From IMG/VR virus record IMGVR_UViG_2882613001_000002, positions 1-64,000 of that record: a DNA stretch of 64,000 nt, one strand, 5' to 3'. The position numbers and the translations under genes are program-made. The notes below the pieces were generated by a model that did not search any database, was not told where the DNA came from, and saw only the letters and a list, made by a program, of their open reading frames with translations. Positions 27,784-44,432 of the stretch are shown piece by piece. Numbering within the stretch: position 1 is the stretch's first letter; each line of letters starts with the position of its first letter. This DNA comes from a virus (lineage: Duplodnaviria > Caudoviricetes).

Positions 27784-27981
27784 CCCCCATACGTAGTATG
27801 GGGGCTTTCCACACTAACTCCTCTTTTGCGGGTAACGTGCTGATAAAGAACGAGAAAATAGGAGTTCGGAGGAGTTGGGGAGGAGTTAGCCCACTAACTC
27901 CTCTTGTGGAGTAAGCCATTGATTTCATTGATACAGGAGTTAGGGAGGACATAGGAGTTAGGCCTCACTCCTAGGAGTTAG
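27784..27981. repeat. Putative phage replication origin: about 8 AGGAGTT(AG) iterons in both orientations, 9-bp inverted repeat and IHF-consensus site
   Basis: Copies at 27814, 27860, 27870, 27881, 27894, 27935, 27953, 27973; CCCCCATAC-GTA-GTATGGGGG 27784-27804; AATCAATGGCTTA on minus strand 27912-27924. Confidence 0.7.
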
Positions 27982-30351
27982 TGAGCCCAAATCGTCGTCC
28001 GCAGCCGTCTCCGGATAGACCCAAACGGCCGGGTTTTCGACGTCCATGCAGACCCCGGAATTGGGGCATTTGTAGTGGCTGGGAAGGACGGGATCGGCGT
28101 CTTCGAAGACCTCTCCGGTCTCCGGATCGACACGCTCTTCGGGGCGAAACCGCATCCCATCGACGCAGAGGTAACCGAACCGGGATCGAACCTTCGGATA
28201 GCCAAAGGCGCTGCCATCTCGCAGGAATTTAACATGGCCCTTCGTGGCCAGAACACTCAACCGTTCGCGGATGGTGTATTTGCTGCCAAGCCCACTCTGG
28301 TTCTCGAAGGCCTCGGCGAACTGCATGGTCGTGTAGAGTTGCCCGCTGGTGGCCTCCTCGAAAAGCAGGTCGAGGATCACATCGCGCTTGCGGTTGCGCT
28401 CGGCGTCATGTTTGGCCCCGACCTCCTTGCGAACCAGTCGCTCGTTCATGGGGTTCAACTCGACCCATTGCCCGTCGACTTTGTCGATCAGCTTGGCGGG
28501 AAGCGCAGGTCCGTTCCTGAGCTCGATCTCCAGCTTGCGTTCCGGGGCCTGTTCGTCGGGCCGGTGGAGGATCAGGCCGGAGGTATAGAACCCGCGCAGC
28601 GCGCTGGCGCCTGAGAGCGCGAGGAAGGGATCGTCTTTGACCTGCTGCTTGCTGAGCTTCTTGGTGTGGTGGACCAGGATCACCCCGCAATCGGGGTCGA
28701 CATGGTCTCGCAGCACCTCGACGCGTTCCTTGAGGAAGAACATCATGGCGGTGTTGTCGTTCTCGCCGCCACCATCGGGCCCGCCGTCGAACAGGTTGCG
28801 GATAGGGTCCACGCAGAGAATGTCAGGCGGTGCCTCCGGGAACGCTGTCTGCACGGCGCGCGCGACCCGCACGCTGCCCTCGTTGTCGAGCAGCATCTTG
28901 AGCTTTGGCGTCGCAACGAAGGTGTCGCGCGCGGCGGCCAGCACCTCTGGCGGCAGGGCAATCTGCTTCAGGCGTTCGCGCAGATAGTGATACTGGATCT
29001 CCGCTTGAAGGTAGAAAATGCGTAGCGCCCGCGGCGGAGTGAACCCGAGGAATGACACGCCAGCCGCCATGTAGACGAGCCAGGAAATCAGAAGGTCGCT
29101 CTTGCCCACCTTGGGCGCGCCGCCCAGCACCAGAAGCCCGCCTGGCGTCAGCACACGCGGAGCAATGATGTCCTCCGGCATGGGGCTCTGGTCGTCGAGC
29201 AGCGCGCCGAGCGTGAAGGCAGGCATCTCCTGTGGCCCCGGTGGGCCGGAGTCCAGCCGGATCAGCGGCGGGCCGTATTTCTCGACATGCCGGTCCCAAA
29301 GCCGCTCGGACTCGCGTTTGAGCCGCTCTACTGGCCACTGGGGCCGCAGCATCGCGGCGTTGTAGCCACAGATGCCTTCCCAACCCTCGTCTTTTGTCAT
29401 CCGGCCCTCATGGACCATACGGATGAAATGGCCGATCGCGGCGGATGCTCCCTCGAAGCGGGACCAGTCGTCCTGCGCCCCCTCTCGCACGGGGGTCACC
29501 AGCACATCGTCCATGGCGGGCTTGTCCGGATGGGTGAACTCAGGCTGCAGGGACACGCCCGGCGCGGGCAGCATGTCGGCGACCGCCTCGATGAACTCGT
29601 CCAGATCACGCTCGTGGGCGGCGTTCAGCTCGACAATACGCACCTGCGTTTTCAGGCTGTTCTTGTAATAGACAGAGCCCGCCACGCGGATGGGCTGGTG
29701 GGCCGAGCGGAAATGCATGTCACCGCCGACCTTGGCGGCAATGTCACCGCGCAGACGGCAGACACGGGCGATGTCTTCACCTTCCGCAGGCTCGGTCAGC
29801 ATCCACCAGACGTGAGCTTTCCGCTGGCCCTCGGGCGTTACGCCGCCGCTTTCCACCACCATGGTCGGCGCGCCGAGGTGGCGTTCGAGGTGCGCACGCT
29901 TGGCAGCGATGTCGCCGGTGTCGAGATCGACCACGACGTTTTGCATCTGCAGGATTTCCGCTGCCTTGGCCTGGCCGGACGCGGCCACGGTGCCGGGTAT
30001 CACGTAGACCGCTGCTCCCTGGCGCGAGGCCCATGTTGCGAAGGTCGCCATCTTCTCGGGGGCGGCCCGGTCCGCCTTGAGCCAGATGTTATGCGGACGG
30101 CCATCGATGCCCTGACCCTTGTCGATGAAACTGCGGACCGGGATCAGCCCGTCGCAATAGCCGAAGACGACTTGCATGAACTGGGCGATTTGCTCCGGAT
30201 CAGGCTCGTCGCCGAACACGTCGACCTGCGGCGCGGCGTCATTGAAATCGCGCCACGGATTGAAATGAACGATGTTCTCTTCGGGCCCATCGGGCACTGT
30301 GTCATCGCGCATTTGCGTGTCCTCGTCGGGATCGGCTGGCTCGTCAGTCAT
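27958..30351 (-). CDS. Primase-helicase (RepB-type primase domain plus AAA_25 ATPase)
   Basis: VVVDLD, ESGG..HVWW, PIRVAGS primase motifs; GGAPKVGKS Walker A; CVDP; LVHHTKK; start at ATGA overlap 30351. Confidence 0.88.
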   Translation of the reverse strand: MTDEPADPDEDTQMRDDTVPDGPEENIVHFNPWRDFNDAAPQVDVFGDEPDPEQIAQFMQVVFGYCDGLIPVRSFIDKGQGIDGRPHNIWLKADRAAPEKMATFATWASRQGAAVYVIPGTVAASGQAKAAEILQMQNVVVDLDTGDIAAKRAHLERHLGAPTMVVESGGVTPEGQRKAHVWWMLTEPAEGEDIARVCRLRGDIAAKVGGDMHFRSAHQPIRVAGSVYYKNSLKTQVRIVELNAAHERDLDEFIEAVADMLPAPGVSLQPEFTHPDKPAMDDVLVTPVREGAQDDWSRFEGASAAIGHFIRMVHEGRMTKDEGWEGICGYNAAMLRPQWPVERLKRESERLWDRHVEKYGPPLIRLDSGPPGPQEMPAFTLGALLDDQSPMPEDIIAPRVLTPGGLLVLGGAPKVGKSDLLISWLVYMAAGVSFLGFTPPRALRIFYLQAEIQYHYLRERLKQIALPPEVLAAARDTFVATPKLKMLLDNEGSVRVARAVQTAFPEAPPDILCVDPIRNLFDGGPDGGGENDNTAMMFFLKERVEVLRDHVDPDCGVILVHHTKKLSKQQVKDDPFLALSGASALRGFYTSGLILHRPDEQAPERKLEIELRNGPALPAKLIDKVDGQWVELNPMNERLVRKEVGAKHDAERNRKRDVILDLLFEEATSGQLYTTMQFAEAFENQSGLGSKYTIRERLSVLATKGHVKFLRDGSAFGYPKVRSRFGYLCVDGMRFRPEERVDPETGEVFEDADPVLPSHYKCPNSGVCMDVENPAVWVYPETAADDDLGSLTPRSEA

Positions 30352-31109
30352 TTGGCGAGGCCCCAGCACCGCTCGGCATGGGCACAGAACCGGCATTCAA
30401 AGAAGTCGCGCTTAGAGGCGATGCGCGGCAGCAGTTCACCGGCGTCGGTGGCCTGCAGGATCCGCACCGCGCGGTCGGACATGCGCTGCGCCAGATCGGC
30501 ATCGAACGGCACGAGCTCATGATGCAGTTCGGCCGTGTCCTTGTTGATGGCAGTGAAGAGCGCCGGTGCGGCCGAGATCCCAGGCACCGCAGGCTCCATG
30601 TAGGCCTGGTAGATCGCGATCTGGGCGGCATAGACGGGCTTGGAAACCGTGACCCCGTCCTTGACGCAGGCGCGCCAGTTCTTCGCGTTCATGGTCTTAC
30701 ATTCCCAGAGCGCCGGGATGCGAAACCCAAGCGCTGCCGGGGCATCAGCGATGATCCCATCGACATGCCCACGGATCCGGCCGCCCGCGACGGAGAATCC
30801 GAACTGGCCGCCATCGCGCTTTTGGGTCACCAGATCGATCCCGGCGGCGCGCAGCCAGCGGATCGCCAGGTCTTCGAGCTGATGACCGATGGCGAAGATC
30901 CGCAACGTCTGCCCGCCGAAGTCGGCACCGTCATCCTTCGGCGCGCCCGCAAACTCGAATTGCAGTGCGCGTTCGCAGGCGTGGCCGAGGCGGGACGCGC
31001 CGAGATAGGTCCGGGGTGGCGTGGCCTCGCGCTCGGCGATGAGGGCCGCGTCGACCAGCGCGTTGATCCGGTCGGCGGTGGACGGGCGGTGATTGAAGTC
31101 CAATGTCAA
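30348..31109 (-). CDS. PD-(D/E)xK exonuclease (Cas4/lambda-exo-like) with Cys cluster
   Basis: GASRLGHACER, GHVDG, WECKT, AQIAIY, ECRFCAHAERC. Confidence 0.85.
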   Translation of the reverse strand: MTLDFNHRPSTADRINALVDAALIAEREATPPRTYLGASRLGHACERALQFEFAGAPKDDGADFGGQTLRIFAIGHQLEDLAIRWLRAAGIDLVTQKRDGGQFGFSVAGGRIRGHVDGIIADAPAALGFRIPALWECKTMNAKNWRACVKDGVTVSKPVYAAQIAIYQAYMEPAVPGISAAPALFTAINKDTAELHHELVPFDADLAQRMSDRAVRILQATDAGELLPRIASKRDFFECRFCAHAERCWGLAK

Positions 31110-31516
31110 AACGGGATCTCCGGCGCGTTTGATTTGGCAATGTCGGCCATGGCCTCGCGGAAACCCTCGACTGCCTCCTCGATCAGTGCCCGCACCTGCG
31201 CCTCCGTCAGATCGGCAAGTGCGGTCTGCCAGCCGATCTCTTCCAACAGCAGCGCGACGCGTTTCAGGGTGGCAGTGATGGCAGCGCGTTCCTCTTCGGT
31301 CAGATCAACCATGGCAAAACGCTCCCGCGCCAAACGCGTCCAGAAGCCCTGGCAGGGCATCGAGCAGAACCAGACCGATGGCCGGGGCCGCTTCGAACGA
31401 ACCGGATCGCGCCAGCCAAAACCACGCGTGGGTTGCCGGCAGACAGCACAGAGCGTGCCACGCGGATGCCAGAGACGCCGCCGCTCCTCGGCTGTGATTT
31501 TGAGTGAAGATGCCAT
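31106..31516 (-). CDS. DUF6511-like zinc-finger protein
   Basis: CAVCRQP...FCSMPCQ; C-terminal PEIPF. Confidence 0.65.
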   Translation of the reverse strand: MASSLKITAEERRRLWHPRGTLCAVCRQPTRGFGWRDPVRSKRPRPSVWFCSMPCQGFWTRLARERFAMVDLTEEERAAITATLKRVALLLEEIGWQTALADLTEAQVRALIEEAVEGFREAMADIAKSNAPEIPF

Positions 31517-31519
31517 GGG

Positions 31520-33202
31520 TCATGCCGCCCTCCGTTCGAATCCGGCCACCGCGTTCACGGCGGCCTGGATGGCGCGTTTGTTGAAGCCGAAGGTCATCAG
31601 CACCGAAGCGCGGTAGCGCGTGAGGCCGAAGTCGTGCCGGCATTTCGGTGGCAGATATTTCAGCTGCTTGTCGGTCGGTGGCTGGCGCAGCCACGCCTTT
31701 GTCTTGAAGGCGCTTTCATCGCTTTCGTGGGTGTTCAGCCAGTCATCGGCCTGCGCGAGGCAGACGGTGCGTTCGCCGACGCCCAGCAGACGTGGCCGCG
31801 CGCCCTTGGCCCCGCCGACGGCGTACCAGACGCCGTCCATCCAGAAGATGCCGCCCCAGGCTGTGAAGCCGGTAGCCATTAGCGCGTCATCTGCGCCGAA
31901 GAGATCGACCCATGCGAAGCTGGAGCGCTTCAGCAGGTCGATCTCGGTCATGACAAAGCCTGAGAGTGGCGCTGCGTTCGTCCCGGTCTCGCCTTCGTCC
32001 TGCAGCAAGACCTCGCCGCAGAGCGGGCATTCAGTGGCGGCGAGCGGTATCTCCGCCGCGCAGGCGGAGCAGGATTTGGTCGGGGCGTCACCGGTGGCGA
32101 TCTTGCCGTCCAGATCGACATCCTGTTCCAGCGTGCCGTGGATCAAGCTCGATGTCCCGAAATCCAGCACCACGCAGTCGGTCTTGACGATGCCGGGGTG
32201 TTCTTCGGGATCGACCGTGCGCAACCCGCGACCGACCATCTGGATCATGGTGGATTTGTAGGAACTAGGCCGCAGCAGCACGACGCAGGAGGTGGGCGGG
32301 TGATCCCAGCCTTCCGTGAGCACGGCGACATTGACGATCACGCAGATCTCGCCTGCCGCATAGTCGGTCAGGATGGACTTGCGGGTGTCGGCCGCCAGAT
32401 CGCCGTGGATCAGCGCGGCCGTGATCCCCGCGGCGCGAAATGCCTCAGTGACGTGTTCGGCATGGGCGACGGTGGAACAGAAGACGACGGTCTGCCGGTC
32501 ACCAGCCTTCTCGCGCCAGTGGCGGATCACCTCGTCGGTGACCGGCGCGCGGTCCATGATGTCCGCCACCTCGGTCATGTCGAAATCGGCACTGGTCTTG
32601 CGGACCGACTTCAATTCCTCCTGCACGCCCACATCGATGACAAAGGTGCGCGGCGGCACGAGATGCCCCGAGGCAATCAACTCAACCAGACGCACCTGGT
32701 CGGCGACATTGTCGAAGACCTCGCGCAGTCCTTTCTTGTCTCCCCGGGTCGGTGTTGCCGTCACCCCGAAAACGCGGGCGTCGGGATTGGCGTCACGCAC
32801 CCGGTTGATGATGCGGCGATAGCTGTCCGCCACCGCGTGATGTGCCTCGTCGATCACAAGCAGGTCGAGGCGCGGCATGTCGGCCAGGTTCGAGGCCCGT
32901 GCCAGGGTCGGCACCATCGCAAAGGTGACGTCGCCGCCCCAGGATTTTTCGGTGGCATCGATCACCGAGGTGGACACCTCCGGCACCATGCGCTGGAACT
33001 TGGCGCGGTTCTGCGCCGTCAGCTCGTCTCGATGCGCCAACACGCAAGCTTTGGCTCCATCACCGAGCATCGCGCCGGTGACTGCCGAGAGCATGATCGT
33101 TTTGCCCGCGCCGGTGGGCGCCACACCGAGCGTATTGCCGTGTTGGCCGAGCGCAGCAACACTGCGCTCGACAAAGGTTTTCTGGCGGGGACGCAGGCGC
33201 AT
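31520..33202 (-). CDS. SF2 DEAD/DEAH helicase with C-terminal zinc finger
   Basis: PTGAGKT, DEAH, TATP, QMVGRGLR, CSAC..CPLC. Confidence 0.92.
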   Translation of the reverse strand: MRLRPRQKTFVERSVAALGQHGNTLGVAPTGAGKTIMLSAVTGAMLGDGAKACVLAHRDELTAQNRAKFQRMVPEVSTSVIDATEKSWGGDVTFAMVPTLARASNLADMPRLDLLVIDEAHHAVADSYRRIINRVRDANPDARVFGVTATPTRGDKKGLREVFDNVADQVRLVELIASGHLVPPRTFVIDVGVQEELKSVRKTSADFDMTEVADIMDRAPVTDEVIRHWREKAGDRQTVVFCSTVAHAEHVTEAFRAAGITAALIHGDLAADTRKSILTDYAAGEICVIVNVAVLTEGWDHPPTSCVVLLRPSSYKSTMIQMVGRGLRTVDPEEHPGIVKTDCVVLDFGTSSLIHGTLEQDVDLDGKIATGDAPTKSCSACAAEIPLAATECPLCGEVLLQDEGETGTNAAPLSGFVMTEIDLLKRSSFAWVDLFGADDALMATGFTAWGGIFWMDGVWYAVGGAKGARPRLLGVGERTVCLAQADDWLNTHESDESAFKTKAWLRQPPTDKQLKYLPPKCRHDFGLTRYRASVLMTFGFNKRAIQAAVNAVAGFERRAA

Positions 33203-33214
33203 GACCGATCCCCC

Positions 33215-33841
33215 TTACTGGGCCCAGCTCGGCCGCCCGGGAGCACCGGGGTTGGCTGCTGGCGGATTGGACGAGGACGTTGGGGCGGCAGCATTCTGCT
33301 GCGAAGTGGCCCCCGGCCCGGCGTTACCACTGAACTGCAGGGGTGCAGTTCCCATGACCTGCGCATAATCGCGATGGTCAGGCGTGACCGCGCTGCGGAT
33401 CTCGTTCTTGTCGTCGCCACTGGCATCGGTGCCGATGTCGATGCGGGCGACGAACTCAATGCCGTCGAGATCGGCGAAACCGCTGATGCGCCGTGCTGCC
33501 TGCGCTTCCGGCGACATGTCCTTGTCGGAAATCCCGCGCGCCGAGTTCAGCATACCGCGCACCAGGCTGCGGCCCATATTGGCCCAGTCTGGCCCCTTCG
33601 GGCTATACAGCCCGATCAGCGTGAAGATCTTGCGCCGGGCATATTGCCCCTCGGTCACGGTGAACTCGCCGTTGAGGTACACCGCGCCGGTGGAGCCGCG
33701 CGTGGCATAGCCGCCAGTCCAGCCCTGCGAGGCGTCGTCGAAGCCGCCGGGGCGGATGGTCAGGCGCACCTTGGCCAGTGTGCCCTTGGGGATGAGGTTG
33801 GTATTGCTCTGCGCGTCGTTGAAATCGTTCCAGGAACCCAT
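33215..33841 (-). CDS. Putative single-stranded DNA-binding protein
   Basis: OB-like beta pattern, low-complexity tail ending RPSWAQ; follows Sak4-like ATPase. Confidence 0.65.
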   Translation of the reverse strand: MGSWNDFNDAQSNTNLIPKGTLAKVRLTIRPGGFDDASQGWTGGYATRGSTGAVYLNGEFTVTEGQYARRKIFTLIGLYSPKGPDWANMGRSLVRGMLNSARGISDKDMSPEAQAARRISGFADLDGIEFVARIDIGTDASGDDKNEIRSAVTPDHRDYAQVMGTAPLQFSGNAGPGATSQQNAAAPTSSSNPPAANPGAPGRPSWAQ

Positions 33842-33860
33842 GGGGAACCTCCTTTTCTGA

Positions 33861-34736
33861 TCAGGATTGTGGTTGGGATTGGTCGTCAGCCGCCGGATCG
33901 GCGGACGGTGGGGCGTAGGTCAGCCGGTCGGATGCCGGTGTTGCAGCCGTCCGAATCTTGGCCATCAGGCGGCCGAGATGGGGTTCTTCGACTTGGTCCA
34001 GACGGCCCGAACGATCCTTGGCCGGGAAACTCCAGGGGTTGATCGTGTGGCAGACAAAGGCGCGATACGGATCGCCGCCATCGGCCTTCAGTTCCGCCAT
34101 GGTGATCACCTCGTCGACGATGCCTGGCAGCTCGAGCCCGGTCTTTGAGCCATCGATCTGCGGCTGGAACATCTTGCGATTGAAGTCGTCGAGCTTCTCG
34201 TCGAGGATCCCGACCAACCAGACATTCTTGGCCCGCGTGTGCTGCAAATGGGTGAGCCAGCCGATCATCTCGCGGCCATGCAAGCCGTACGCCCCGCGCA
34301 CATCCGGCTTGCCGGTTTTCTCCGACAGCGCCTCGGGTTGGCCTTTGCACCAGCCAAAGCACAGCCGCCCGGCAACCGTGATCGAATCCACGAAGATGGT
34401 GTCGTAGCGGTCCAGCGCTGCCGGATCGCCGAAGCGCTCGCAGACGGCGGCATAATGCGCGGGGCTGTATGGCTGCTCATCGCGCAGCGCCGGGTTCGGC
34501 CCACCGATGAACACCGCGAAATCCCGGCATTCCGTCCAGGTGCGCGGCCGGATGCTGTCACCCGCCCAGCCTTCGATGGCGAGGTCACCCGCTTCGAGAT
34601 CCATGAACAAGGTGCGGTCGGCATCGAGGGTCCAGAGCAGCGAGGTCTTCCCAATGCCGGATTTCCCGAAGATGCAGCCCTTGATGCCGCGTGGCTCGGC
34701 CAGCCGCTCGTCGGCGCTGATGATAGGGAGGCTCAC
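33861..34736 (-). CDS. Sak4-like AAA_24 ATPase (recombination/SSB loader)
   Basis: GKSGIGKT Walker A, MDLEAG, FVDS, PAKDRSG. Confidence 0.85.
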   Translation of the reverse strand: MSLPIISADERLAEPRGIKGCIFGKSGIGKTSLLWTLDADRTLFMDLEAGDLAIEGWAGDSIRPRTWTECRDFAVFIGGPNPALRDEQPYSPAHYAAVCERFGDPAALDRYDTIFVDSITVAGRLCFGWCKGQPEALSEKTGKPDVRGAYGLHGREMIGWLTHLQHTRAKNVWLVGILDEKLDDFNRKMFQPQIDGSKTGLELPGIVDEVITMAELKADGGDPYRAFVCHTINPWSFPAKDRSGRLDQVEEPHLGRLMAKIRTAATPASDRLTYAPPSADPAADDQSQPQS

Positions 34737-35221
34737 TGGTCAGCCCCCTGCGCGAGGATCTCGACCTTCAGCGTGCCAGGCCGCACAGTGCGCGCGGGCT
34801 CGAAACTGGCGCGAATGCCGTCAGGCCACGCGCTGTATTTCCGCTCCGGCACTTTGATCGTAATGTCGACATACTGCGCGGGATCGTCACCTGAGGCGCG
34901 GATGCGCTCGACCACGTCACCAAGCTGTGCCTTATCCCAGTCCACCCGCTTCGGCAGATCGGCGACCACGGTGAAATCGCCGTCATCGAAGCGGACAGTG
35001 CCGGTGTCCTTGCCGGCGGCCTGGCGTTCTTCGGTGGCCCGGGTGGCGTAGCGGACCGCCAGTCCGGCATCGAAGCGAGCCTTGGCCGCCTTGTCGCGCT
35101 TCAGACGCTCGTCGATTTCGCGTTGCAGGATCGCCAGCAACTCGACCGGCAGCGCCGCGATCTCGGCCGCGCTGAGCGAAGGCAGATCGTCCGGCGTTGG
35201 GGTGTTCTCGGGGAATGGCAT
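34733..35221 (-). CDS. Conserved phage hypothetical protein
   Basis: VADLPKRVDWDKAQL, KVPERKYSAWP; in replication operon. Confidence 0.7.
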   Translation of the reverse strand: MPFPENTPTPDDLPSLSAAEIAALPVELLAILQREIDERLKRDKAAKARFDAGLAVRYATRATEERQAAGKDTGTVRFDDGDFTVVADLPKRVDWDKAQLGDVVERIRASGDDPAQYVDITIKVPERKYSAWPDGIRASFEPARTVRPGTLKVEILAQGADQ

Positions 35222-35265
35222 GAAATGGTCTCCGTGATCGGTGAATAAGGATTGGAAGGCCGGCA

Positions 35266-35619
35266 TCACGCGGCCTCAGGCTCGGCGAGCAGCAGCTCGG
35301 ACAGCGAGACGGCAGCAGCTTTGGGTTTGGGGCGGGCAACGGCGATGTAGGCGAACTGGTCGGGCCCCACGCGCTCCTGCACGAGATGTACGAGACCCTG
35401 CTCAGCGGCCCAGAAGGCCCGCGATCCAAGCCTGCTCAACTCGGCGCGTGCCGCATCCGACAGCCCTGAAAACACAGGGAAGATGTCGAGCACCAGAAAG
35501 CCGCGATGGTATTCCAGCCGGTCGCCGGGAACGGCCTGCGCCACCCAGGCGCAGAATTCGATCTCGGACAGCGGTCGGCTGGCGCGAACCGTGATGAAGG
35601 GTGTGGTTTCCATGAACAT
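35266..35619 (-). CDS. Hypothetical protein
   Basis: EFCAWVAQAVPGDRLEYHRGFL; co-oriented in operon. Confidence 0.7.
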   Translation of the reverse strand: MFMETTPFITVRASRPLSEIEFCAWVAQAVPGDRLEYHRGFLVLDIFPVFSGLSDAARAELSRLGSRAFWAAEQGLVHLVQERVGPDQFAYIAVARPKPKAAAVSLSELLLAEPEAA

Positions 35620-35637
35620 GATCTCCTCCTTTCGCCT

Positions 35638-35898
35638 CTACTCAGGCCGCTGCCGCGTCGTCCCAGTCGGGACCGAGGCCGCTTCAATGTCCTTTGTTGC
35701 GGCGTTGTGCTGATCGTCCGGCTGGCCCGCGTCGGCGTCGGCATAGACCGCCACGAGAGGCGTCCCATCCTGGTGGGCCCCGGCATTCTCGATGCGGTAT
35801 GCACGCTGGTTCTTCAGGATTTCCGGCAGCTCCCAGCGGCGGTAGAGGCCGGGGATGCGCTTGAGGTCTGCGGACAAGAGGTCGGCTTTGCGGATCAT
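35638..35898 (-). CDS. Hypothetical protein, first gene after the promoter-like motif
   Basis: MIRKADLLSADLKRIPGLYRRWELPEILK. Confidence 0.5.
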   Translation of the reverse strand: MIRKADLLSADLKRIPGLYRRWELPEILKNQRAYRIENAGAHQDGTPLVAVYADADAGQPDDQHNAATKDIEAASVPTGTTRQRPE

Positions 35899-35947
35899 GC
35901 GGGTCGACTTTCGGTTTGAGTGGGGCGCGCGGTGGCGTCTGAATGGG

Positions 35948-35981
35948 AAAAGCCACCGCACCGCTGAGATCGGGACATCCG
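35948..35981 (-). promoter_or_regulatory. Bipartite motif CGGATGTCCCG-N12-CGGTGGCTTTT, copy A (before replication operon)
   Basis: Both blocks and spacer length identical to copy B at 39474-39507. Confidence 0.65.
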
Positions 35982-35982
35982 A

Positions 35983-36702
35983 TCAGCGAAATTCTCGCAG
36001 GACGTCGCGCAGACGCCGGGTCGCCCGCTGATAGCGTTTGCGCGTTGCCGCCTCAGACAGCCCCAACTCCGATGCGACCTCAGCCTGCGAGAACCCGTCG
36101 ACGGCCACGCGGATCACCAGATCAGAATCCTTGCCGACGATGCGGACGAGATCGCGGTGGAGCAGTGCAGAGCTGGCGTTGGCTGACGCCTGATCGTCAG
36201 TTGGGATTTCGTCGGGATCGGCCTCGCTGCGCAGGCTCTGGTGCCTGTCCTCGCGTTGACGCGTTCTGATCAGGTCGCGCTCGATGTTTCGGAGGATGGT
36301 GGAAGCGATCCAGTTGACGCGCTGCAGATCCAGACAGCGAATGGCCTCGGAGGCCCGTGCCAGGATTTCAGATGCAACCTCGTCACCGGTGCCGATCCTG
36401 CGCCAGGTCGATCTGCGCCGAACGGCATCCAGCCCCGGCCAGAGCGCCAGCAGCATGAGCGTCAGGGCACAATCGGCGGCCTCGTCGCCAGACTGTGCAG
36501 CCCGGACCAGAGCAACCAATATTCGGTTCTTCTCATCTGGCCCGCGGCTGCCGACTTGCAGCGTGTCCAGCAATGCAGCCGGATCAGCGAAATGCGCGAG
36601 CGGTTCGCTGCTGCGCCGGAGCTCATCGAAGGTGTGTTGAAAACCAAGAGTTGAAGAAGAAAACATGAGGTGATCACGGATCTCGTGCCACGCGATGGAC
36701 AT
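35983..36702 (-). CDS. Phage-encoded sigma-70 family (ECF-like) factor
   Basis: Region 2-like LALWPGL..EVASEIL..WIASTILRN; region 4 HTH GFSQAEVASELGLSEAATRKRYQRA. Confidence 0.8.
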   Translation of the reverse strand: MSIAWHEIRDHLMFSSSTLGFQHTFDELRRSSEPLAHFADPAALLDTLQVGSRGPDEKNRILVALVRAAQSGDEAADCALTLMLLALWPGLDAVRRRSTWRRIGTGDEVASEILARASEAIRCLDLQRVNWIASTILRNIERDLIRTRQREDRHQSLRSEADPDEIPTDDQASANASSALLHRDLVRIVGKDSDLVIRVAVDGFSQAEVASELGLSEAATRKRYQRATRRLRDVLREFR

Positions 36703-36731
36703 TGGACGCCTGCCTTGCGGCCAGGCGTCCA
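36703..36731 (-). promoter_or_regulatory. RNA hairpin abutting the sigma start codon and covering its Shine-Dalgarno position
   Basis: TGGACGCCTG-GCCGCAAGG-CAGGCGTCCA immediately followed by ATG. Confidence 0.6.
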
Positions 36732-36801
36732 GCGCCTTTTCGTGGCCACGTCAGGACGTCGTGCGTCTCTGCGACTTCAGGGAAATGGTGAGACGTGCGC
36801 C

Positions 36802-37047
36802 TTAGCGCGCGGGTGATGTCGCCTGGTTCAGCGTTCCGCAGCCGCGGCACGTGGCCACGACCGGAAAGCCCACGAAATACTCGTGCCCTCGCGCAAAGCG
36901 CAGGTGCATGCGGCCGTCCCGGCAAACGCCGAGCAGCTTGTCACAGCGCGTACAGCGCCATTCCGAGGTCAAAGGGTTGGGGGTTGATTTTGCGCCACCG
37001 GCCCAGCTGATCTGGGCTGGCTGGCGTGAAGTATCGGGAGTCGGCAT
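36802..37047 (-). CDS. Mu Com-like zinc-ribbon protein
   Basis: WRCTRCDKLLG ... TCRGCGTLN; true start may be later. Confidence 0.7.
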   Translation of the reverse strand: MPTPDTSRQPAQISWAGGAKSTPNPLTSEWRCTRCDKLLGVCRDGRMHLRFARGHEYFVGFPVVATCRGCGTLNQATSPAR

Positions 37048-37091
37048 GGAAGTGCTCCTCTGACTGAGTGAGCCTTTCCAATAGACAGCGG

Positions 37092-37128
37092 TTTTTTAGA
37101 CCGTCGCCCGCAATATTTTTGACCGTCG
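37092..37128. repeat. Direct repeat T-tract plus GACCGTCG at 22-bp spacing, candidate operator
   Basis: GACCGTCG at 37099-37106 and 37121-37128, each preceded by a T run; upstream of the com-like gene. Confidence 0.45.
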
Positions 37129-37156
37129 ACAGACCGGCCCGCCGAGATCGGCCAGA

Positions 37157-39349
37157 TTATACGACAAGTCGCCAATATCCACGGGTCGAACCCTTGGCGA
37201 TATAGACGTCAAGAATGCTCTCCCACATCGGTTTCTTGAACGCCTGCTGTGGGCTCTTGACGCCAGTATCCTCGATGAGGTCAGCGGTTTTGACATCAGG
37301 ACTGCCGGCAAGATGCGCCGTTACCAGCTTTTCGAAGATCCGGATCTGATTTGCACCAAGAATGGCAAGCGGTGCTTTTCCTGGGATGCACAATGAAGCG
37401 GATTGGTTGCCTGACTTGAGCACTGCGACTGAACTGCCCCCCGCGGCAACATTCCGTCCAGAACTGAAGGTCTGCGCCAACGCATCACGCGACAGCACCA
37501 AGTCTTCGCCCTCATCGGACAGATGCGTGAGCACCGGAACGACGACATTCGGCCCGAGGCAGGTGAGTGTATCGACGCTGGATGTCAGGACGATCCCGAT
37601 CCCAGACGCATTCCGCGCACGCAGGAGTTGATCCAGCTTGTTGATGACCTGGGGATTACCCAAACGCCGCGCGAAATAGACCGGTTTGCGATGGCCATCC
37701 GTCCCCATGTCACCCATCAGGACCAAATCCTGATCAAGGACCTGCGCTCCCTTGCTTGTCAGCAATGGACGGATGAGTTTCAGCACGGTTTCCTGAAGCC
37801 ATTCGCGATTGAGTTGATAGCGTTCCAGATCGGCCGCTGGATGTTCGCCCGCATCCTCTCCAAACGGACCTGTCGCCGAGACCATTCCTGGCGTCGATGA
37901 GGGCTTGATCTCGACCTCACCGTCAATGTCGTCCTTGTCAATCAGCACGACATCCTGCCGGTCACGCCGCTCGAGCAGCCCACCCTCAATCAGACGATCA
38001 GGATCAAGCCCGATCTCACGCAAGTATCCACCCGTGACCTCGTCTTCCTCGAGATCGTAGAGGTCCACCAGTTGCGCGAACATGGCACGCAAATCGCCGT
38101 TGTCGATCTGACGGAAGGCGCTCAGGATCCCCCATTCGTGCAGCAACGCAAATCCGAGGCTGCGTTCGTCGGGGTCCTTGTTGCTCTGCAGATTGCAGCT
38201 CTTGACGCCTGACACAGTGATGTTGAGGGAGCGTTCCTTGGCGTCGCCTGCACGGTTGTACTTTACTGCAATGCCAATGCGGCTGAAACTGGCAGCCCTC
38301 CGGAAGATGTTGCCCCGGCCGAGATACCTTGTCGCGATTTCCTGGATGTCATCATCGATGGCGACCTTGAGAGCCAGTTTTCGGCTCCAGTGGCCCAGAC
38401 GGATTTCCACTTCCAGCACCCGCGCCACCTGGATTTCCACACCTTCGATCTTCGGGATTGAAAGTGCCAGAGATGTGCGGAAACGGCTGAGGTTGTAGCG
38501 CTTCCAGGTCAGCGGTTTTTGAGAAATGTCGTGTTCCAGCGTAACCTCGGCGAAGGCATCGCCCACCTTCTGCCGAACAACCGGACTGTCGGCGCAAATT
38601 TCGATCTGCCTTTTTGATGGGGTGTAGATCAAGGTCGCTTCGTTTGGCGGTCGGAAATAGATCGTTCCCCGCCGCCCGTCGTCGCGATGGTCGTGCACGC
38701 TCGACAATGGGCCGCCGTGACGGACAATCAGCATGATTGATGTCGGATGCGCTTCAGTAGAAGGCAGGTCGAGCGCCTTAACCGTACAGATTGTCTTGAG
38801 TTCGAGGACCTCCGTGATCTTCGACGCCAGCGCGGTTTCATCGATTGCGTTTGCGTCAAGGTTGATCGCCTTTTCCAACTCGACCTCGAACGCATCGTAC
38901 ATCTTACCGTGGTCGCGGAATTGGCGTGCGAAATGAAAACTCTCCGCATCCTCGAAAGTCTGACGTGTGTTGAGAAACGCCCAGATGCTCCTGCAGAGCG
39001 GATCAGGCTGCGCCTCGATTTCCTGCGCCTGCTCTTCCGTGAACTGCTTGTCGACAATTGTAGCGAGGGATGAAATGCCCTTGCTGTCGGAAAGTGCACG
39101 GATCCTGCGACAGCGCTGTTCGGCTGGCCGCAATTCGTCCAGATCAAAATCTGACAAAATTCCAATGATTTTCTGCCGAAATTCGCTGACCGATTCTTCA
39201 TCTGAAGGATTTGGAGTCTCCTCGGGCAAATTGAACTCTGGCTCGTTCTCGCCTTCCCGAATAGCAAGCACCGCGCGTGCAAGGTCGATCCGCGCGTCCT
39301 CGATCAACGCGAGGATATTCGGGCCAATCGGATTTGCTTTTTGCGCCAT
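37157..39349 (-). CDS. 730-aa unknown protein with C-terminal winged-helix-like domain
   Basis: Long ORF with RBS GAGGTGAG; C-terminus VKTADLIEDTGVKSPQQAFKK...KGSTRGYWRL. Confidence 0.8.
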   Translation of the reverse strand: MAQKANPIGPNILALIEDARIDLARAVLAIREGENEPEFNLPEETPNPSDEESVSEFRQKIIGILSDFDLDELRPAEQRCRRIRALSDSKGISSLATIVDKQFTEEQAQEIEAQPDPLCRSIWAFLNTRQTFEDAESFHFARQFRDHGKMYDAFEVELEKAINLDANAIDETALASKITEVLELKTICTVKALDLPSTEAHPTSIMLIVRHGGPLSSVHDHRDDGRRGTIYFRPPNEATLIYTPSKRQIEICADSPVVRQKVGDAFAEVTLEHDISQKPLTWKRYNLSRFRTSLALSIPKIEGVEIQVARVLEVEIRLGHWSRKLALKVAIDDDIQEIATRYLGRGNIFRRAASFSRIGIAVKYNRAGDAKERSLNITVSGVKSCNLQSNKDPDERSLGFALLHEWGILSAFRQIDNGDLRAMFAQLVDLYDLEEDEVTGGYLREIGLDPDRLIEGGLLERRDRQDVVLIDKDDIDGEVEIKPSSTPGMVSATGPFGEDAGEHPAADLERYQLNREWLQETVLKLIRPLLTSKGAQVLDQDLVLMGDMGTDGHRKPVYFARRLGNPQVINKLDQLLRARNASGIGIVLTSSVDTLTCLGPNVVVPVLTHLSDEGEDLVLSRDALAQTFSSGRNVAAGGSSVAVLKSGNQSASLCIPGKAPLAILGANQIRIFEKLVTAHLAGSPDVKTADLIEDTGVKSPQQAFKKPMWESILDVYIAKGSTRGYWRLVV

Positions 39350-39432
39350 TAACTCACCTCAATGCATGTTATCTCTTAACTTGTTTCAACCTCCGATAAT
39401 CGTTGACGAAAGTAAGGTTCACAAGAGCAGAT

Positions 39433-39447
39433 GTTCGCCACCTGTTC
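39433..39447. promoter_or_regulatory. Alphaproteobacterial LexA (SOS) box
   Basis: GTTC-GCCACCT-GTTC (GTTC-N7-GTTC) in the divergent intergenic region; TTGACG at 39403. Confidence 0.65.
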
Positions 39448-39473
39448 GCTTTCTCATCAGCGCTTGGCGAGGG

Positions 39474-39507
39474 CGGATGTCCCGCCCAGGCCTTCTCGGT
39501 GGCTTTT
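39474..39507 (+). promoter_or_regulatory. Bipartite motif CGGATGTCCCG-N12-CGGTGGCTTTT, copy B (before recombinase operon)
   Basis: Identical blocks to copy A; 39 nt before ATG at 39546. Confidence 0.65.
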
Positions 39508-39545
39508 GGTTGGTAACGACACCAGCAAGCACGGCCACCCAAGAC

Positions 39546-39749
39546 ATGAAACGACCCACCCCCCTGCCACCCGACCAGATGACGCCCGCAGAACGCCGCG
39601 CCGAGCTATGCGGCCTGCTGGCGCTCGGGCTGGTTCGGTTGCGGATGCGTGATCGGGCGGAAGTATCTGACGATACTGGAGAAAGTGGACTACACTATCC
39701 GGCCGACGAATGGCGTCATGCAACTCCAACTCACCGGAGAAATGTATGA
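39546..39749 (+). CDS. Small hypothetical protein of recombinase module
   Basis: MKRPTPLPPDQMTPAERRAELCGLLALGLVRL; ATGA overlap with next gene. Confidence 0.65.
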   Translation: MKRPTPLPPDQMTPAERRAELCGLLALGLVRLRMRDRAEVSDDTGESGLHYPADEWRHATPTHRRNV

Positions 39750-40198
39750 CGACCCACGATCCGATCCCCGCGCGCCTGGCCGCGCTCAAGACCACATCGA
39801 CGCCTGACCTAAAGGCGCAATGGCGGGAGTTGTTCGACAGCGAACCGCCGCCGTTCAATCGCCGTTACCTCGAAAGTCGCCTCGCGTACCGCATCCAGGA
39901 GCTGGCTTATGGCGGCCTGAAGCCGGAAACGGTAAAGCGGCTAGAAGCCCTTGGCGAGCAACTTGATGGCGGTGATCGCAAAAAGAGCCGCATCCGCGCT
40001 GACCTGACGCCCATCGTCGGGACGCGGTTGATCCGTGAATGGCAAGGCGTTGAACACCTCGTCACCGTCACCGCCGACGGTTTCGACTGGCAGGGTCGCC
40101 CTTATAAATCGCTGTCAGCCATTGCCTGCGCCATCACCGGTACGCGCTGGAACGGCTGGGTGTTCTTTGGCCTGAAAAACCACCGGAGGCGCGCATGA
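39746..40198 (+). CDS. DUF2924 protein (possible recombination directionality/accessory factor)
   Basis: LAYRIQELAYGGL, GTRLIREWQG, YKSLSAIACAITGTRWNGWVFFGL. Confidence 0.85.
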   Translation: MTTHDPIPARLAALKTTSTPDLKAQWRELFDSEPPPFNRRYLESRLAYRIQELAYGGLKPETVKRLEALGEQLDGGDRKKSRIRADLTPIVGTRLIREWQGVEHLVTVTADGFDWQGRPYKSLSAIACAITGTRWNGWVFFGLKNHRRRA

Positions 40199-41505
40199 CC
40201 AAGCCAATTGTCCGGAAACTGCGCTGCGCGATCTACACGCGCAAGTCCTCCGAGGAAGGGCTCGAGCAGGAATTTAACAGTCTGCACGCGCAACGGGAGG
40301 CCTGCGAGGCCTATATCGCTAGCCAGCGCTCCGAGGGCTGGGTGCTCGTCCACGATCAGTATGACGATGGTGGCATTTCTGGCGGCACGCTAGACCGCCC
40401 GGGCTTGCAGCAATTGATGGCGGATATTGAGGACGGGCTTGTCGATGTGGTCGTTGTCTACAAGATCGACCGCCTCAGCCGCTCTCTGGCCGATTTCGCC
40501 AAGCTGGTCGAGGTGTTCGACCGCAATGACGTGACCTTCGTTTCGGTCACGCAGTCGTTCAATACCACCACATCAATGGGGCGGCTGACGCTAAACATCC
40601 TGCTTTCCTTCGCCCAGTTCGAGCGCGAGGTCACGGCCGAGCGCATTCGCGACAAGGTCGCGGCGAGCCGCAAAAAGGGGATGTGGATGGGCGGGGTTCC
40701 GCCCTACGGTTATCGCGTTGAAAGTCGCAAACTGATCATCGACGAGGAGCGCGCAGCGCATGTCCGTTGGGCATTCGAGCGGTTTATCAAAATCGGATCT
40801 GGCACCGAACTGGCCCGCGAAACCGCTGCCAAGGGCATACTGACCCCCAAGGGCAACCCGATGGACAAGAAGTTTATCTACCGCATGCTCAACAACCGCG
40901 CGTATATTGGCGAGGCGGTCCACAAGGGCGAAAGCTATCCCGGCGAGCACGACGCCATCATCGATCGCGAGACGTGGGACCGCGTCCATGCCATCCTGCA
41001 GGAAAGCCCACGCAAACGCGCGGCCCGGACCAGAGCCAAAACACCAGCCATGCTCAAAGGCTTGCTCTATGGACCGGACGGCGCGGCGTTTTCGCCGACG
41101 CACACCCGCAAACGCGACCGGCTGTATCGCTACTATGTCAGCCAGACCGTGCTGAAGCACGGCGCCGGATCGTGTCGCGTGGGCCGTGTCTCGGCTGGTG
41201 AGATCGAAACCGCCGTCATTGATCAGCTTCGCACAGTGTTCCGCCAACCCGAGATCGTGGCCGGGACATGGAAGGCGGCACGCGCCAATGCCGACGACAT
41301 CACCGAGGCCGATGCCCGCGCGGCTCTGCAGCAGCTCGATCCGCTTTGGGATGAACTCTTCCCCGCCGAGCAGGCACGCATCGTGGCGCTTCTGATCGAG
41401 CGCGTGGACATCGGCACGGACGGGCTCAATGTCCGGCTGCGCGTCGACGGCCTCCGTGGCCTTGCGCGCGAGATGTTTGCAGGCGGTATTGAGGCGGCGG
41501 CATGA
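40195..41505 (+). CDS. Large serine recombinase (integrase)
   Basis: CAIYTRKSS catalytic Ser, DRLSRS, AQFERE, GGVPPYGY, H.AIID. Confidence 0.93.
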   Translation: MTKPIVRKLRCAIYTRKSSEEGLEQEFNSLHAQREACEAYIASQRSEGWVLVHDQYDDGGISGGTLDRPGLQQLMADIEDGLVDVVVVYKIDRLSRSLADFAKLVEVFDRNDVTFVSVTQSFNTTTSMGRLTLNILLSFAQFEREVTAERIRDKVAASRKKGMWMGGVPPYGYRVESRKLIIDEERAAHVRWAFERFIKIGSGTELARETAAKGILTPKGNPMDKKFIYRMLNNRAYIGEAVHKGESYPGEHDAIIDRETWDRVHAILQESPRKRAARTRAKTPAMLKGLLYGPDGAAFSPTHTRKRDRLYRYYVSQTVLKHGAGSCRVGRVSAGEIETAVIDQLRTVFRQPEIVAGTWKAARANADDITEADARAALQQLDPLWDELFPAEQARIVALLIERVDIGTDGLNVRLRVDGLRGLAREMFAGGIEAAA

Positions 41506-41903
41506 CCAGCAGGACGCCGATCCCGGACACCGTGACGCTGCACGTGCCTTTCCGTGTCGTGAAGCGCGGTGGGCGAAAGGAGATGCAGCTGCCCGAGGGC
41601 GTCAAGCAACCGCGTCGAACGGACAACACGCTGGTGAAGGCTCTGGCCCGCGGTTTTAGGTGGAAGTGGATGTTGGAGTCCGGGGACTTCACGACGATCA
41701 ACGAACTGTCCAAACGCGAAGGGATCGCGCCATCATACATGACTCGCGTTTTGCGGTTGACGCTGCTCGCCCCGGATATCGTCGAAGCGATCTTGGATGG
41801 GCAACAGGGGCCGGAGATAACGCTGGCGCGGGTTCTGGAACCATTTCCGACCGAGTGGGAGGATCAATTGATGAACTTCAAACTTGAGTTCCACGGGTCA
41901 TAG
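41502..41903 (+). CDS. Recombinase-associated hypothetical protein with HTH-like segment
   Basis: VKRGGRKEMQLP, TINELSKREGIAPSYMTRVLRLTLLAPDIVEAIL. Confidence 0.75.
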   Translation: MTSRTPIPDTVTLHVPFRVVKRGGRKEMQLPEGVKQPRRTDNTLVKALARGFRWKWMLESGDFTTINELSKREGIAPSYMTRVLRLTLLAPDIVEAILDGQQGPEITLARVLEPFPTEWEDQLMNFKLEFHGS

Positions 41904-42088: not shown

Positions 42089-42859
42089 GTGGCAGACGGA
42101 TTCATCGCATTCGAGTTGGACCTGATGGGTGCAGTCATGAACCAGCTCATCCCCACGCTCGATGCCATGGGTAGCGCGCCGCTCACCCTAGACAACGCCC
42201 AGGCGCTTCCCGACGCCCAAGGCGTGTACCTGCTGATCCACGACGGAGAGGTCCGCTATGTCGGGAAAACCGATGCGGAGGCTGGGCTTCGAACCCGCCT
42301 GGCTAGGCACGCGCGGAAGTTCGAGCAACGGCGAAACGTGCGGCCCGAAGATGTCCAGTTCAAGGCCGCGCGGATCCTCGTTCTGACCGCGATGGATATC
42401 GAATCCAGATTGATTGCCCACTACGGTTCGGAGTGGAACGGATCGGGCTTCGGGTCCAATGATCCAGGGCGCGAGCGCGAGACGACGAACAAGCCTGAGC
42501 AGGGCTTCGACGCGCGCTTTCCGATCGACATTGATACTCCGCATAGTTTGCTTGCGACGGGACAGACGACGGTTCACGTTGCCCTAATGGCACTGAAGGA
42601 TGTGCTTCCCTACACCCTGCGCTACGAGGTTTCTTTACCACCGCCACGAACGAAGGTCGGAGGACATGACTATCGGCTAAATCCTCACCCGGACATGCCA
42701 GCGTCGCAATTGGAGATTCCACCCGGTCCCATCTCAGTGCGAAGAGCAATGCAGCTGATCGTAGCTGCTTTGCCCGCTGGCTGGCAGGCGACCTATTTCG
42801 TGAGCCACGTGATCCTGTACAAGGAAGATCGCCAGTACGCTCACGGGGTTCAGATCTAA
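42089..42859 (+). CDS. GIY-YIG endonuclease, Eco29kI-like restriction enzyme candidate
   Basis: GVYLLI...YVGKT, RTRL..H, conserved E, WNGSGFGSNDPG; GTG start; convergent with MTase. Confidence 0.8.
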   Translation: MADGFIAFELDLMGAVMNQLIPTLDAMGSAPLTLDNAQALPDAQGVYLLIHDGEVRYVGKTDAEAGLRTRLARHARKFEQRRNVRPEDVQFKAARILVLTAMDIESRLIAHYGSEWNGSGFGSNDPGRERETTNKPEQGFDARFPIDIDTPHSLLATGQTTVHVALMALKDVLPYTLRYEVSLPPPRTKVGGHDYRLNPHPDMPASQLEIPPGPISVRRAMQLIVAALPAGWQATYFVSHVILYKEDRQYAHGVQI

Positions 42860-44019
42860 GCCGCGCTGAGCTTGTCTCGAACGCCTGTGGCGACGATCCG
42901 AGCCAATTGGCACGGGACGGCGTTTCCGAGCTGCCGCATCGTCTCCGTCCACGAGCCGTGGAACACCATGTCGTCGGGGAAGGTCTGCAGGCGAGCGCTC
43001 TCTCGGATCGTGAAATAGCGCACCGAGCCATCAGGCCTGCGCAGCATGTTCTCGCCTCCAGGAACACCATGCACGCCCGCCTTCAGTGTCTTGCCGGGCT
43101 CGTCAAGTGGGCTTCCCGTGTGCCCCGGATAGGAGCGTGCACCGGGTTGAAACCGGTGGTCATGAAAGTCCAGCGCCGTGCCGGACGCATGTTCCGGATC
43201 CGGAAGGTCGGAGATCGCGTCGCGCACGGTCAGCCACGGTTCGTCCAGAGGCCGCTCAGCTATCTTCAAGGCCCGCGCCTGCGCCGCACCACCATCCGGC
43301 CGGTTCTTGCGAGAGACGCGGTGCAGGTCCCAATAGACCTCCTCGCGCCATTGCGACCAGAGCAGCGCGTCCCGCGAGTGGGTCGGCTTCGGAAAGTGCC
43401 ACTCGATCTCGGTGTCGGCACGGAACCCGACGAGGAAGATGCGCTCACGTCGCTGGGGGACACCGTAGTTCGCCGAATTCAGAACCCGCATCACCACTCG
43501 ATAGTGCAGGCCCTTCTCGGTTCCCTTCGTGTGATGGTTCTCCAGGCGCGCGAGGTGTGCCAGCCATTCTTCTTCCCTCTTGGCAACAAGATCGGGATAG
43601 GTCAGCTGCAGTCGAATGTACTCGAGGTAATTCGCGAAACTGCTGCGCGTAAGCCCCTTTACGTTCTCGAAGATGAAAGCCCTAGGTCGAAGCTCGCGCA
43701 CGGCACGGATGGCCTGCGGGAACATGTCCCGGCTGTCGAGAAATGCGCGGTGGCGTCCGCCCATCGAAAAAGGTTGGCAGGGCGGTCCGCCCGTAACGAG
43801 GTCGACGGAGCCGCCTACGGTCCCAAAATCGAACTGCCGCACATCACCCTCATGAATCGGCCAGTGCGTAATTGGATCAAGACCGCGATCTTTGTTCTCG
43901 CGGAGAGTGTCGCACGCCCATCGGTCCCAGTCCATGACGGCAGCCGGGCGGAATCCTGCTTGGCTGACGCCGATCCCAAGCCCGCCTGCGCCCACGAACA
44001 GCTCGACCGATCTCATCAT
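42856..44019 (-). CDS. C5 cytosine DNA methyltransferase of type II R-M
   Basis: ELFVGAGG, GGPPCQPFS, FENV, QRRERIF, RYFTIRESARLQTFPD, QLGNAVP; start at ATGA overlap with vsr. Confidence 0.95.
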   Translation of the reverse strand: MMRSVELFVGAGGLGIGVSQAGFRPAAVMDWDRWACDTLRENKDRGLDPITHWPIHEGDVRQFDFGTVGGSVDLVTGGPPCQPFSMGGRHRAFLDSRDMFPQAIRAVRELRPRAFIFENVKGLTRSSFANYLEYIRLQLTYPDLVAKREEEWLAHLARLENHHTKGTEKGLHYRVVMRVLNSANYGVPQRRERIFLVGFRADTEIEWHFPKPTHSRDALLWSQWREEVYWDLHRVSRKNRPDGGAAQARALKIAERPLDEPWLTVRDAISDLPDPEHASGTALDFHDHRFQPGARSYPGHTGSPLDEPGKTLKAGVHGVPGGENMLRRPDGSVRYFTIRESARLQTFPDDMVFHGSWTETMRQLGNAVPCQLARIVATGVRDKLSAA

Positions 44020-44432
44020 CCCAGGAACTCCCCGATCCTTGCCTGCAATTCCTCTCGGTTTTTTGTTTGGCATTCCCATATCACGAGGACGTCCCAACCG
44101 AGTTCTGCGAGCAGGACGATATTACGCTCGTCCCGTTTCCTATTTGTTTCCAGCTTCGGGCCCCAAAAGTCCAGCCTGGATTTCGGGAGTCTCGCCAGCG
44201 GGCACGCCGGATCTGGGTGTCGGTGCCAAAAACAGCCGTGCACGAAGATTACCTTTCTTCGAGCCGGAAAGACTAGGTCAGGCTTCCCGGGCAGGTCATG
44301 ACGATGAAGCCTGTAGCGATAGCCCATACCGTGGACCAGGCGGCGCACCAGCAGCTCCGGCTTGGTGTCACGGCCGCGGACCCGGCTCATGCGCTCGCTT
44401 CGCTGTTCTGGCGTCAGTGTATCCACGCGCAT
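44016..44432 (-). CDS. vsr: Very short patch repair endonuclease
   Basis: DTLTPEQRSERMSRVRGRDTKPE, LPGKPDLVF, FVHGCFWH, WECQ. Confidence 0.95.
   Translation of the reverse strand: MRVDTLTPEQRSERMSRVRGRDTKPELLVRRLVHGMGYRYRLHRHDLPGKPDLVFPARRKVIFVHGCFWHRHPDPACPLARLPKSRLDFWGPKLETNRKRDERNIVLLAELGWDVLVIWECQTKNREELQARIGEFLG

Follow-up and report, generated by a model that had tools for sequence, protein, structure and literature searches.

Phage sigma factors with private promoters are a familiar strategy, and those of a few lytic phages and of Bacillus elements are textbook examples. In Bacillus, Xpf of PBSX and gp28 and gp33/34 of SPO1 are sigma-like positive control factors that are made from an early operon after induction and activate the next class of transcription. 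In the lytic podovirus phiEco32, a highly divergent two-domain sigma factor, gp36, redirects the host core RNA polymerase to phage promoters; the early genes are left to the host holoenzyme, and the holoenzyme with gp36 transcribes the later classes (PMC12276001). A single AATGTA element centred at -11.5 is common to the middle and late promoters of this phage, and gp36 depends on a second protein, gp79 (PMC12276001). Here we analyse a stretch of 64,000 nucleotides (nt) of GC-rich, marine metagenome DNA (positions 1 to 64,000 of IMG/VR virus record IMGVR_UViG_2882613001_000002; hereafter the window), which carries a siphovirus-type prophage of a marine Rhodobacterales-like host. A 3.5-kb segment of this prophage encodes a sigma-like protein of 239 amino acids (aa), and two copies of one bipartite motif point outward from it. 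As judged from sequence, the two sites are probably promoters dedicated to the sigma factor that the prophage itself encodes, in a cascade that would lead from an early operon via the sigma to the replication and recombinase operons. phiEco32 gp36 is the closest characterised analogue of this protein, and cellular extracytoplasmic function (ECF) sigmas are closest in fold.

The bipartite motif and its conservation

The 34-nt pattern CGGATGTCCCG-N12-CGGTGGCTTTT occurs exactly at two places in the window, once on each strand (copies A and B, Table 1), and the 12-nt spacers, ATCTCAGCGGTG and CCCAGGCCTTCT, have 2 of 12 bases in common. Copy A begins 1 nt past the TGA stop codon of the sigma gene (35985-35983), with its TGTCCC core starting 5 nt past it; 49 nt separate its end from a conserved ATG at 35898. 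For copy B, the distance to the ATG at 39546 is 38 nt. Allowing up to three mismatches revealed no further match in the 64-kb window (and none in 100 dinucleotide shuffles). In a position-weight scan built from 59 homologous instances, the two copies scored 53.0 and 38.7 bits, against -0.6 for the runner-up in the window and a shuffle maximum of 6.1, and the element therefore contains exactly two copies. The first-pass annotation, which had found both copies by eye, was thus right about their positions, their fixed spacing, their differing spacers and their number. Its division into two blocks of 11 nt describes the two copies in the window, in which all block positions are identical, but conservation across the family is limited to a shorter core. 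Sigma-54, CtrA and Ogr-type sites do not fit the motif sequence.

This core emerged from ~190 related loci, 40 from genomes and ~150 from IMG/VR. It reads TGTCCC-N16-TGGCTTTT and spans 30 nt; the additional identical flanking bases (CGGA, G and CGG) are restricted to this element and a few close relatives. The family is large, with 744 close homologues of the sigma in the protein collection, 767 cluster representatives in an exhaustive search and at least 245 matching stretches in IMG/VR contigs. Prophages of the group reside in cultured strains of Sulfitobacter, Mesobacterium, Oceaniglobus, Antarctobacter, Salibaculum, Jannaschia and Gemmobacter. All 106 loci that include the C-terminus of the sigma have the sigma-side copy, 9-16 nt past the last sigma codon and always with a gap of 16 nt. 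A second copy lies on the opposite strand ~2.7-2.9 kb upstream, ahead of the small open reading frame (ORF) on the recombinase side. Elements whose sigma is 58-67% identical to that of the window (L024, L026, L027, L031-L033, L036 and L037 among them) have a third copy ~1516 nt past the end of the sigma gene, between the AAA_24 gene and the gene for a 208-aa protein (PHROG 2300). In the window the corresponding junction measures 19 nt (33842-33860) and holds no motif copy.

The surroundings of the motif are those of a promoter. Among 53 distinct copy-B regions, information upstream of TGTCCC is near zero (0.0-0.8 bits per position); conservation sets in exactly at the first block, and the leaders downstream are moderately conserved. 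A co-oriented ORF starts within 150 nt downstream in 205 of 211 distinct instances, at a median distance of 49 nt. The family thus shares two non-palindromic blocks at fixed spacing upstream of co-oriented genes, as is the case for sigma-dependent promoters.

Inverted copies that flank a 3.5-kb segment and adjoin a large serine recombinase could alternatively be inversion or attachment sites for that enzyme. Such sites would have an identical core between inverted half-sites and would be met in both orientations. Here, the central 16 nt, the would-be crossover core, differ between the copies, the half-sites are not mutually palindromic, and no related locus examined has the segment inverted, the sigma stop codon always being followed by the copy-A leader. 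In addition, some elements carry three copies, two of them direct and 1.5 kb apart, and the copies lie inside the prophage rather than at its ends. We therefore consider a role in recombination very improbable.

The motif might also be the promoter of a host alternative sigma factor, with the prophage a member of the host regulon. Alphaproteobacteria indeed possess many ECF sigmas with bipartite promoters. However, when five ~4-Mb genomes of hosts belonging to different genera were scanned, all 13 matches to the core pattern fell on prophage sites (2-3 per prophage, and four in a genome with two prophages), and the reversed control had 0. The same motif is also found across hosts labelled as different orders, namely Rhodobacterales, Hyphomicrobiales and one Burkholderiaceae-labelled metagenome-assembled genome. 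Because the core pattern is confined to prophages in these five genomes, we regard a host sigma regulon as practically excluded.

An exact-pattern scan of IMG/VR added at least 116 new loci. Among the matches listed, 40 have a sigma homologue and 26 have other window-like genes, the latter being mostly family members, with a few that match the recombinase or helicase only. A further 50 are unrelated, mostly low-GC loci with single matches at roughly chance level. Owing to such single matches in unrelated phages, the 14-base core alone is not diagnostic in very large databases. Three IMG/VR loci of GC content 0.45-0.52 (L240, L247 and L258) have an identical TGTCCC-N16-TGGCTTTT in a stretch that matches the serine recombinase, and no sigma homologue within the fetched stretch. 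The system may extend to these loci as a more remote branch, or the match may be a coincidence. A tblastn search with the sigma against 50,697 sequenced phage genomes gave no match, and we found no paper on the sigma or the motif of this phage group.

The sigma-like protein and candidate readers of the motif

The 239-aa protein matches Pfam Sigma70_r4_2 at 28.4 bits (cut-off 25.7) and has no match to Pfam Sigma70_r2. In phmmer its residues 71-237 align to residues 5-172 of Mycobacterium tuberculosis SigL in the PDB (E 1.7e-4), and in the family profile residues 102-236 align to residues 50-183 of R. sphaeroides RpoE (E 5e-5). Modelled with AlphaFold2 from 83 aligned sequences, the protein reaches a mean predicted local distance difference test score (pLDDT) of 93, and the Foldseek/VIA matches of the model among those listed (ranks 1-50) are all sigma-factor chains. 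Residues 1-152 and 53-161 of the model superpose on sigma2 of sigmaS, sigma70 and sigmaE with a root-mean-square deviation (rmsd) of 3.1-3.5 Å over 100-110 residues (106-110 for residues 1-152) and Z scores of 8.4-8.9. Residues 175-239 superpose on sigma4 of SigR, SigD and PhyR with an rmsd of 1.8-2.3 Å over 60-62 residues. Both domains can thus be assigned, sigma2 by the alignments and the model, and sigma3 is absent. About 60 extra N-terminal residues superpose on the segment ahead of sigma2 in group 1 and 2 sigmas. From sequence and model we conclude that the protein is a divergent two-domain member of the sigma-70 family with a predicted ECF-like architecture.

If this protein reads the motif, the two should vary together. 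The TGGCTTTT block follows 110 of 125 distinct sigma genes (these 110 at 50-94% identity), single-base variants of it follow eight, and CGGCTTTT follows two. By contrast, all five sigma genes at 33-39% identity are followed by TGTCCC-N16-(C/G)CGCGTTT, and one element, L123, has the CGCGTTT form at all three of its copies. The type of the second block thus separates with the sigma clade. The recognition-helix motif AARKRYQRA of sigma4 is nearly invariant throughout the family, as is TGTCCC, and the divergence of sigma2 is greatest in the CGCGTTT clade, a pattern that would follow from recognition of the first block by sigma4 and of the second by sigma2.

The neighbouring genes follow the change of the second block less closely. 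The 81-aa protein encoded directly upstream of the sigma has an identity of 49-74% in the CGCGTTT clade, which falls within the 41-98% of the TGGCTTTT clade, and for the 86-aa protein encoded downstream of copy A the identity ranges of the two clades overlap only partly. The 730-aa gene that begins the leftward operon is 28-96% identical or absent in relatives in which the motif is unchanged, and is therefore not the motif reader. It is the most variable gene of the module and adjoins the control region, as expected of an immunity or specificity determinant.

Several points weigh against the assignment of the motif to the phage sigma. The curated sigma70-ECF model TIGR02937 matches residues 107-234 (E 8.4e-10) at 38.5 bits, below its cut-off of 42.9, and specific ECF models all score far under their own cut-offs; since the curated score is not reached, we do not place the protein in any named ECF group. 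Both blocks differ from ECF promoter motifs of the GGAAC/CGT type, and the second block is unlike known ECF -10 motifs. The change of the second block is one clade-level change, a single evolutionary event. In addition, one locus, L146, has CCGCGTTT at its sigma-side copy and TGGCTTTT at its recombinase-side copy (coordinates 6031 (+) and 2503 (-)). Its sigma is 39% identical to that of the window and goes with the CGCGTTT-type promoter adjoining it, whereas its 730-aa, 81-aa and AAA_24 genes resemble the clade of the window. Here, the sigma and the adjoining promoter seem to have moved as one cassette into a mosaic element, and either one sigma reads both copies or the pairing is broken. Further, the motif is constantly accompanied by the 81-aa and 86-aa genes, and in the window GGTGGC can pair with a downstream GCCACC at both copies (35925-35962 (-) and 39498-39533 (+)), the stem at copy A reaching 10 bp. 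The last two points lead to two other readings.

According to the first of these, the motif would be a promoter or activator site that host RNA polymerase uses together with another phage protein, the 81-aa or the 86-aa product, and the sigma-like protein would have a different role. Both genes stand beside the motif in essentially every locus, the distant clade included, and phage late promoters are known to be activated by small zinc-finger proteins, among them the P2 Ogr family. The identity of the 81-aa protein, however, fails to separate the TGGCTTTT from the CGCGTTT elements, which sigma identity separates cleanly. The 86-aa gene lies downstream of the copy-A promoter and therefore cannot provide the first trigger. 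Moreover, the site is non-palindromic, has a -35/-10-like geometry without a sigma-70-type -10 hexamer, and lacks the TGT-N12-ACA dyad of Ogr-type sites. The only sigma-70-type consensus match in 35500-39800, at 38701-38728, lies away from the motif copies. A different phage activator is thus less well supported than the phage sigma, and we consider it unlikely.

The second reading takes the motif to act as RNA in the transcribed leaders of both divergent transcripts, as a nut-like antitermination, processing or stability element. Both copies in the window fold into two hairpins (Z ~ -2.4), one with a 6-bp stem and the loop AUGUC and one in which GGUGGC pairs with the downstream GCCACC. Across 28 copy-B sequences, changes opposite the TGGC arm are mostly wobble-compatible, and outward copies on both sides of a regulatory region recall nutL and nutR of lambda. 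Nevertheless, the first hairpin is broken in most relatives (CCGATGTCCCG or TGCATGTCCCA) while TGTCCC is invariant, the RNAalifold consensus of the 28 sequences is weak (-3.8 kcal/mol) with 0 compensatory pairs, and in other clades the leader hairpin lies wholly downstream of TTTT. No boxB-like hairpin kept by compensatory changes, as in lambda-type nut sites, was found, and no intrinsic terminator-like site is predicted in 35500-39800. What is conserved is the sequence and not the pairing, and a function as RNA appears to us improbable. With respect to the pairing itself, that of the second block is kept via changed bases in some relatives (L023) and not in others; another clade pairs the spacer with a downstream segment and leaves the second block in a loop.

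Weighing these points, we favour recognition by the phage sigma. The first-pass annotation had proposed the motif as a candidate promoter of the phage's own sigma factor, and fixed geometry, placement, prophage-only occurrence, the sigma fold and the change of the second block all support this proposal. Its label of an ECF-type sigma is borne out for the sigma2/sigma4 architecture but not for the scores, which stay below the curated ECF cut-offs. As to the expected co-variation of motif and sigma, a difference is seen between clades, but it amounts to one change, and L146 carries both types.

Proposed cascade and gene layout

We propose the following sequence of events. The leftward early operon (730-aa, 81-aa and sigma genes) would have its start close to a LexA-like box in the divergent control region. 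The 239-aa sigma would then bind the host core RNA polymerase, with sigma4 reading TGTCCC as a -35-like block and sigma2 reading (G)TGGC(TTTT), 16 nt downstream, as a -10-like element; the start of transcription would lie a few bases past the run of T. From copy A, promoter PA would drive the 86-aa gene together with the replication genes, and the entire phage genome of that orientation may depend on it as well. From copy B, promoter PB would drive the small-ORF/DUF2924/serine-recombinase operon in the opposite direction. In this way, DNA replication and the recombinase module would be activated jointly by one phage protein. Late genes may be reached by read-through from PA or have other promoters. 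Co-activation of excision and replication by the sigma had been suggested in the first-pass annotation. The copies stand at the head of the replication and recombinase operons; excision as such is inferred, and PB may serve excision, integration or both.

The LexA-like box consists of GTTC-N7-GTTC, which we take to be the LexA operator consensus of Alphaproteobacteria. Of 80 distinct related regions, 47 have an exact box 42-45 nt ahead of copy B and 49 have a box anywhere in the 220 nt searched, against a background of 0.017 per 220 nt. A conserved box at a fixed distance suggests that the divergent early region is under SOS control. The 730-aa, 81-aa and sigma genes would thus probably be transcribed first, in an SOS-sensitive manner, before PA and PB fire in dependence on the sigma. 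It is conceivable, though we hold it to be doubtful, that the element uses a switch without a classical cI-type repressor, in which host LexA, at the conserved box, holds the early region, the sigma is the single commitment factor that fires replication and the recombinase operon at once, and the sigma gene and the promoter adjoining it form a cassette that can be swapped between phages, as in L146. If true, such a swappable cassette would let promoter specificity shift module by module.

The prophage encodes a large terminase, a portal, a protease-capsid fusion, a tape measure and a 1321-aa tail protein, and a replication block with an AAA_24 ATPase, an SF2 helicase, a Cas4-like exonuclease, a primase/helicase and a RuvC-like resolvase. 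These structural and replication genes are all on the minus strand, from 39349 downward. The divergent control region, with copy B inside it, measures 196 nt, and the leftward genes closest to it are those of the 730-aa, 81-aa and 239-aa proteins (Table 1).

Table 1. Motif copies, predicted control site and genes around the sigma-like gene of the window.
Feature	Position (nt)	Strand	Remarks
Copy A (candidate promoter PA)	35948..35981	-	TGTCCC 35977-35972, 16-nt spacer, TGGCTTTT 35955-35948
Copy B (candidate promoter PB)	39474..39507	+	TGTCCC 39478-39483, 16-nt spacer, TGGCTTTT 39500-39507
GTTC-N7-GTTC box, LexA-operator-like	39433..39447		Starts 45 nt upstream of TGTCCC of PB, in the divergent control region
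239-aa sigma-like protein (sigma2 + sigma4, no sigma3)	35983..36702	-	Proposed motif reader; Pfam, TIGR02937 and PDB matches, AlphaFold2 model
81-aa protein	36802..37047	-	Gene directly upstream of sigma; without Pfam or PHROG match
730-aa protein	37157..39349	-	First gene of the leftward early operon; sole match PHROG 37634
86-aa protein	35638..35898	-	First gene downstream of PA; ATG at 35898
Replication/recombination genes, co-oriented, downstream of PA	27958..35619	-	117 aa, 178 aa (PHROG 2480), AAA_24 ATPase, 208 aa (PHROG 2300), SF2 helicase, 136 aa, Cas4-like exonuclease, primase/helicase; Pfam/PHROG matches
Operon downstream of PB	39546..41903	+	67-aa ORF, DUF2924, large serine recombinase, 133-aa protein
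67-aa ORF	39546-39749	+	
DUF2924 gene	39710-40198	+	
Large serine recombinase	40195-41505	+	
133-aa protein	41502-41903	+	PHROG 14161 'recombinase'

Many metatranscriptome contigs match the module downstream of PB but differ from the window in the sequence ahead of it, so that the module is present in many other elements with other upstream regions. The metatranscriptome contigs that match 35400-39900, which cover small shares of the sequence, are mostly from other elements with this recombinase module. Beyond it lie genes for an Eco29kI-like nuclease (42089-42859, +) and a C5 cytosine methyltransferase (42856-44097, -), and the GC content drops from ~44 kb to 54 kb. Together, this looks like a cargo or defence region at the prophage end.

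Significance and comparison with known sigma factors

The strategy of a phage sigma with its own promoters is already known; new here are the Rhodobacterales-type consensus TGTCCC-N16-TGGCTTTT and its CGCGTTT clade variant. This temperate phage group is apparently unstudied, yet common in marine Rhodobacterales and related Alphaproteobacteria. The 30-nt site and the candidate sigma provide a testable model for the coupling of induction to replication and recombinase expression in these prophages, and the motif can serve as a simple rule for annotating their regulatory core. The CGCGTTT clade is a natural specificity variant in which recognition of the second block by sigma2 could be studied. 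The candidate pair is compact and absent from the rest of the five host genomes, and may be of use as an expression tool in high-GC Alphaproteobacteria.

With respect to cellular proteins, group 4 (ECF) sigmas such as RpoE (2q1z) and SigL (6dv9) share with the 239-aa protein the combination of sigma2 and sigma4 without sigma3 and a bipartite promoter, here a candidate one, with a fixed spacer of ~16 nt; they are also its best matches in sequence and structure. In contrast to them, the phage protein has the ~60 extra N-terminal residues, scores below the curated cut-off and has no evident anti-sigma partner. No motif copy lies upstream of its gene, which would therefore not be autoregulated, unlike the genes of cellular ECF sigmas.

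The Bacillus factors belong to unrelated hosts and are unrelated in sequence. PBSX Xpf and the SPO1 proteins control late morphogenesis or middle genes, whereas the predicted targets here are a replication operon and a recombinase operon. As in phiEco32, a divergent two-domain phage sigma is predicted to serve phage-specific promoters. In contrast to phiEco32, however, the element is a temperate, siphovirus-type prophage with a bipartite site, no gp79-like partner has been identified in it, and the motif is present in 2-3 copies per genome, one of which stands ahead of the recombinase module.

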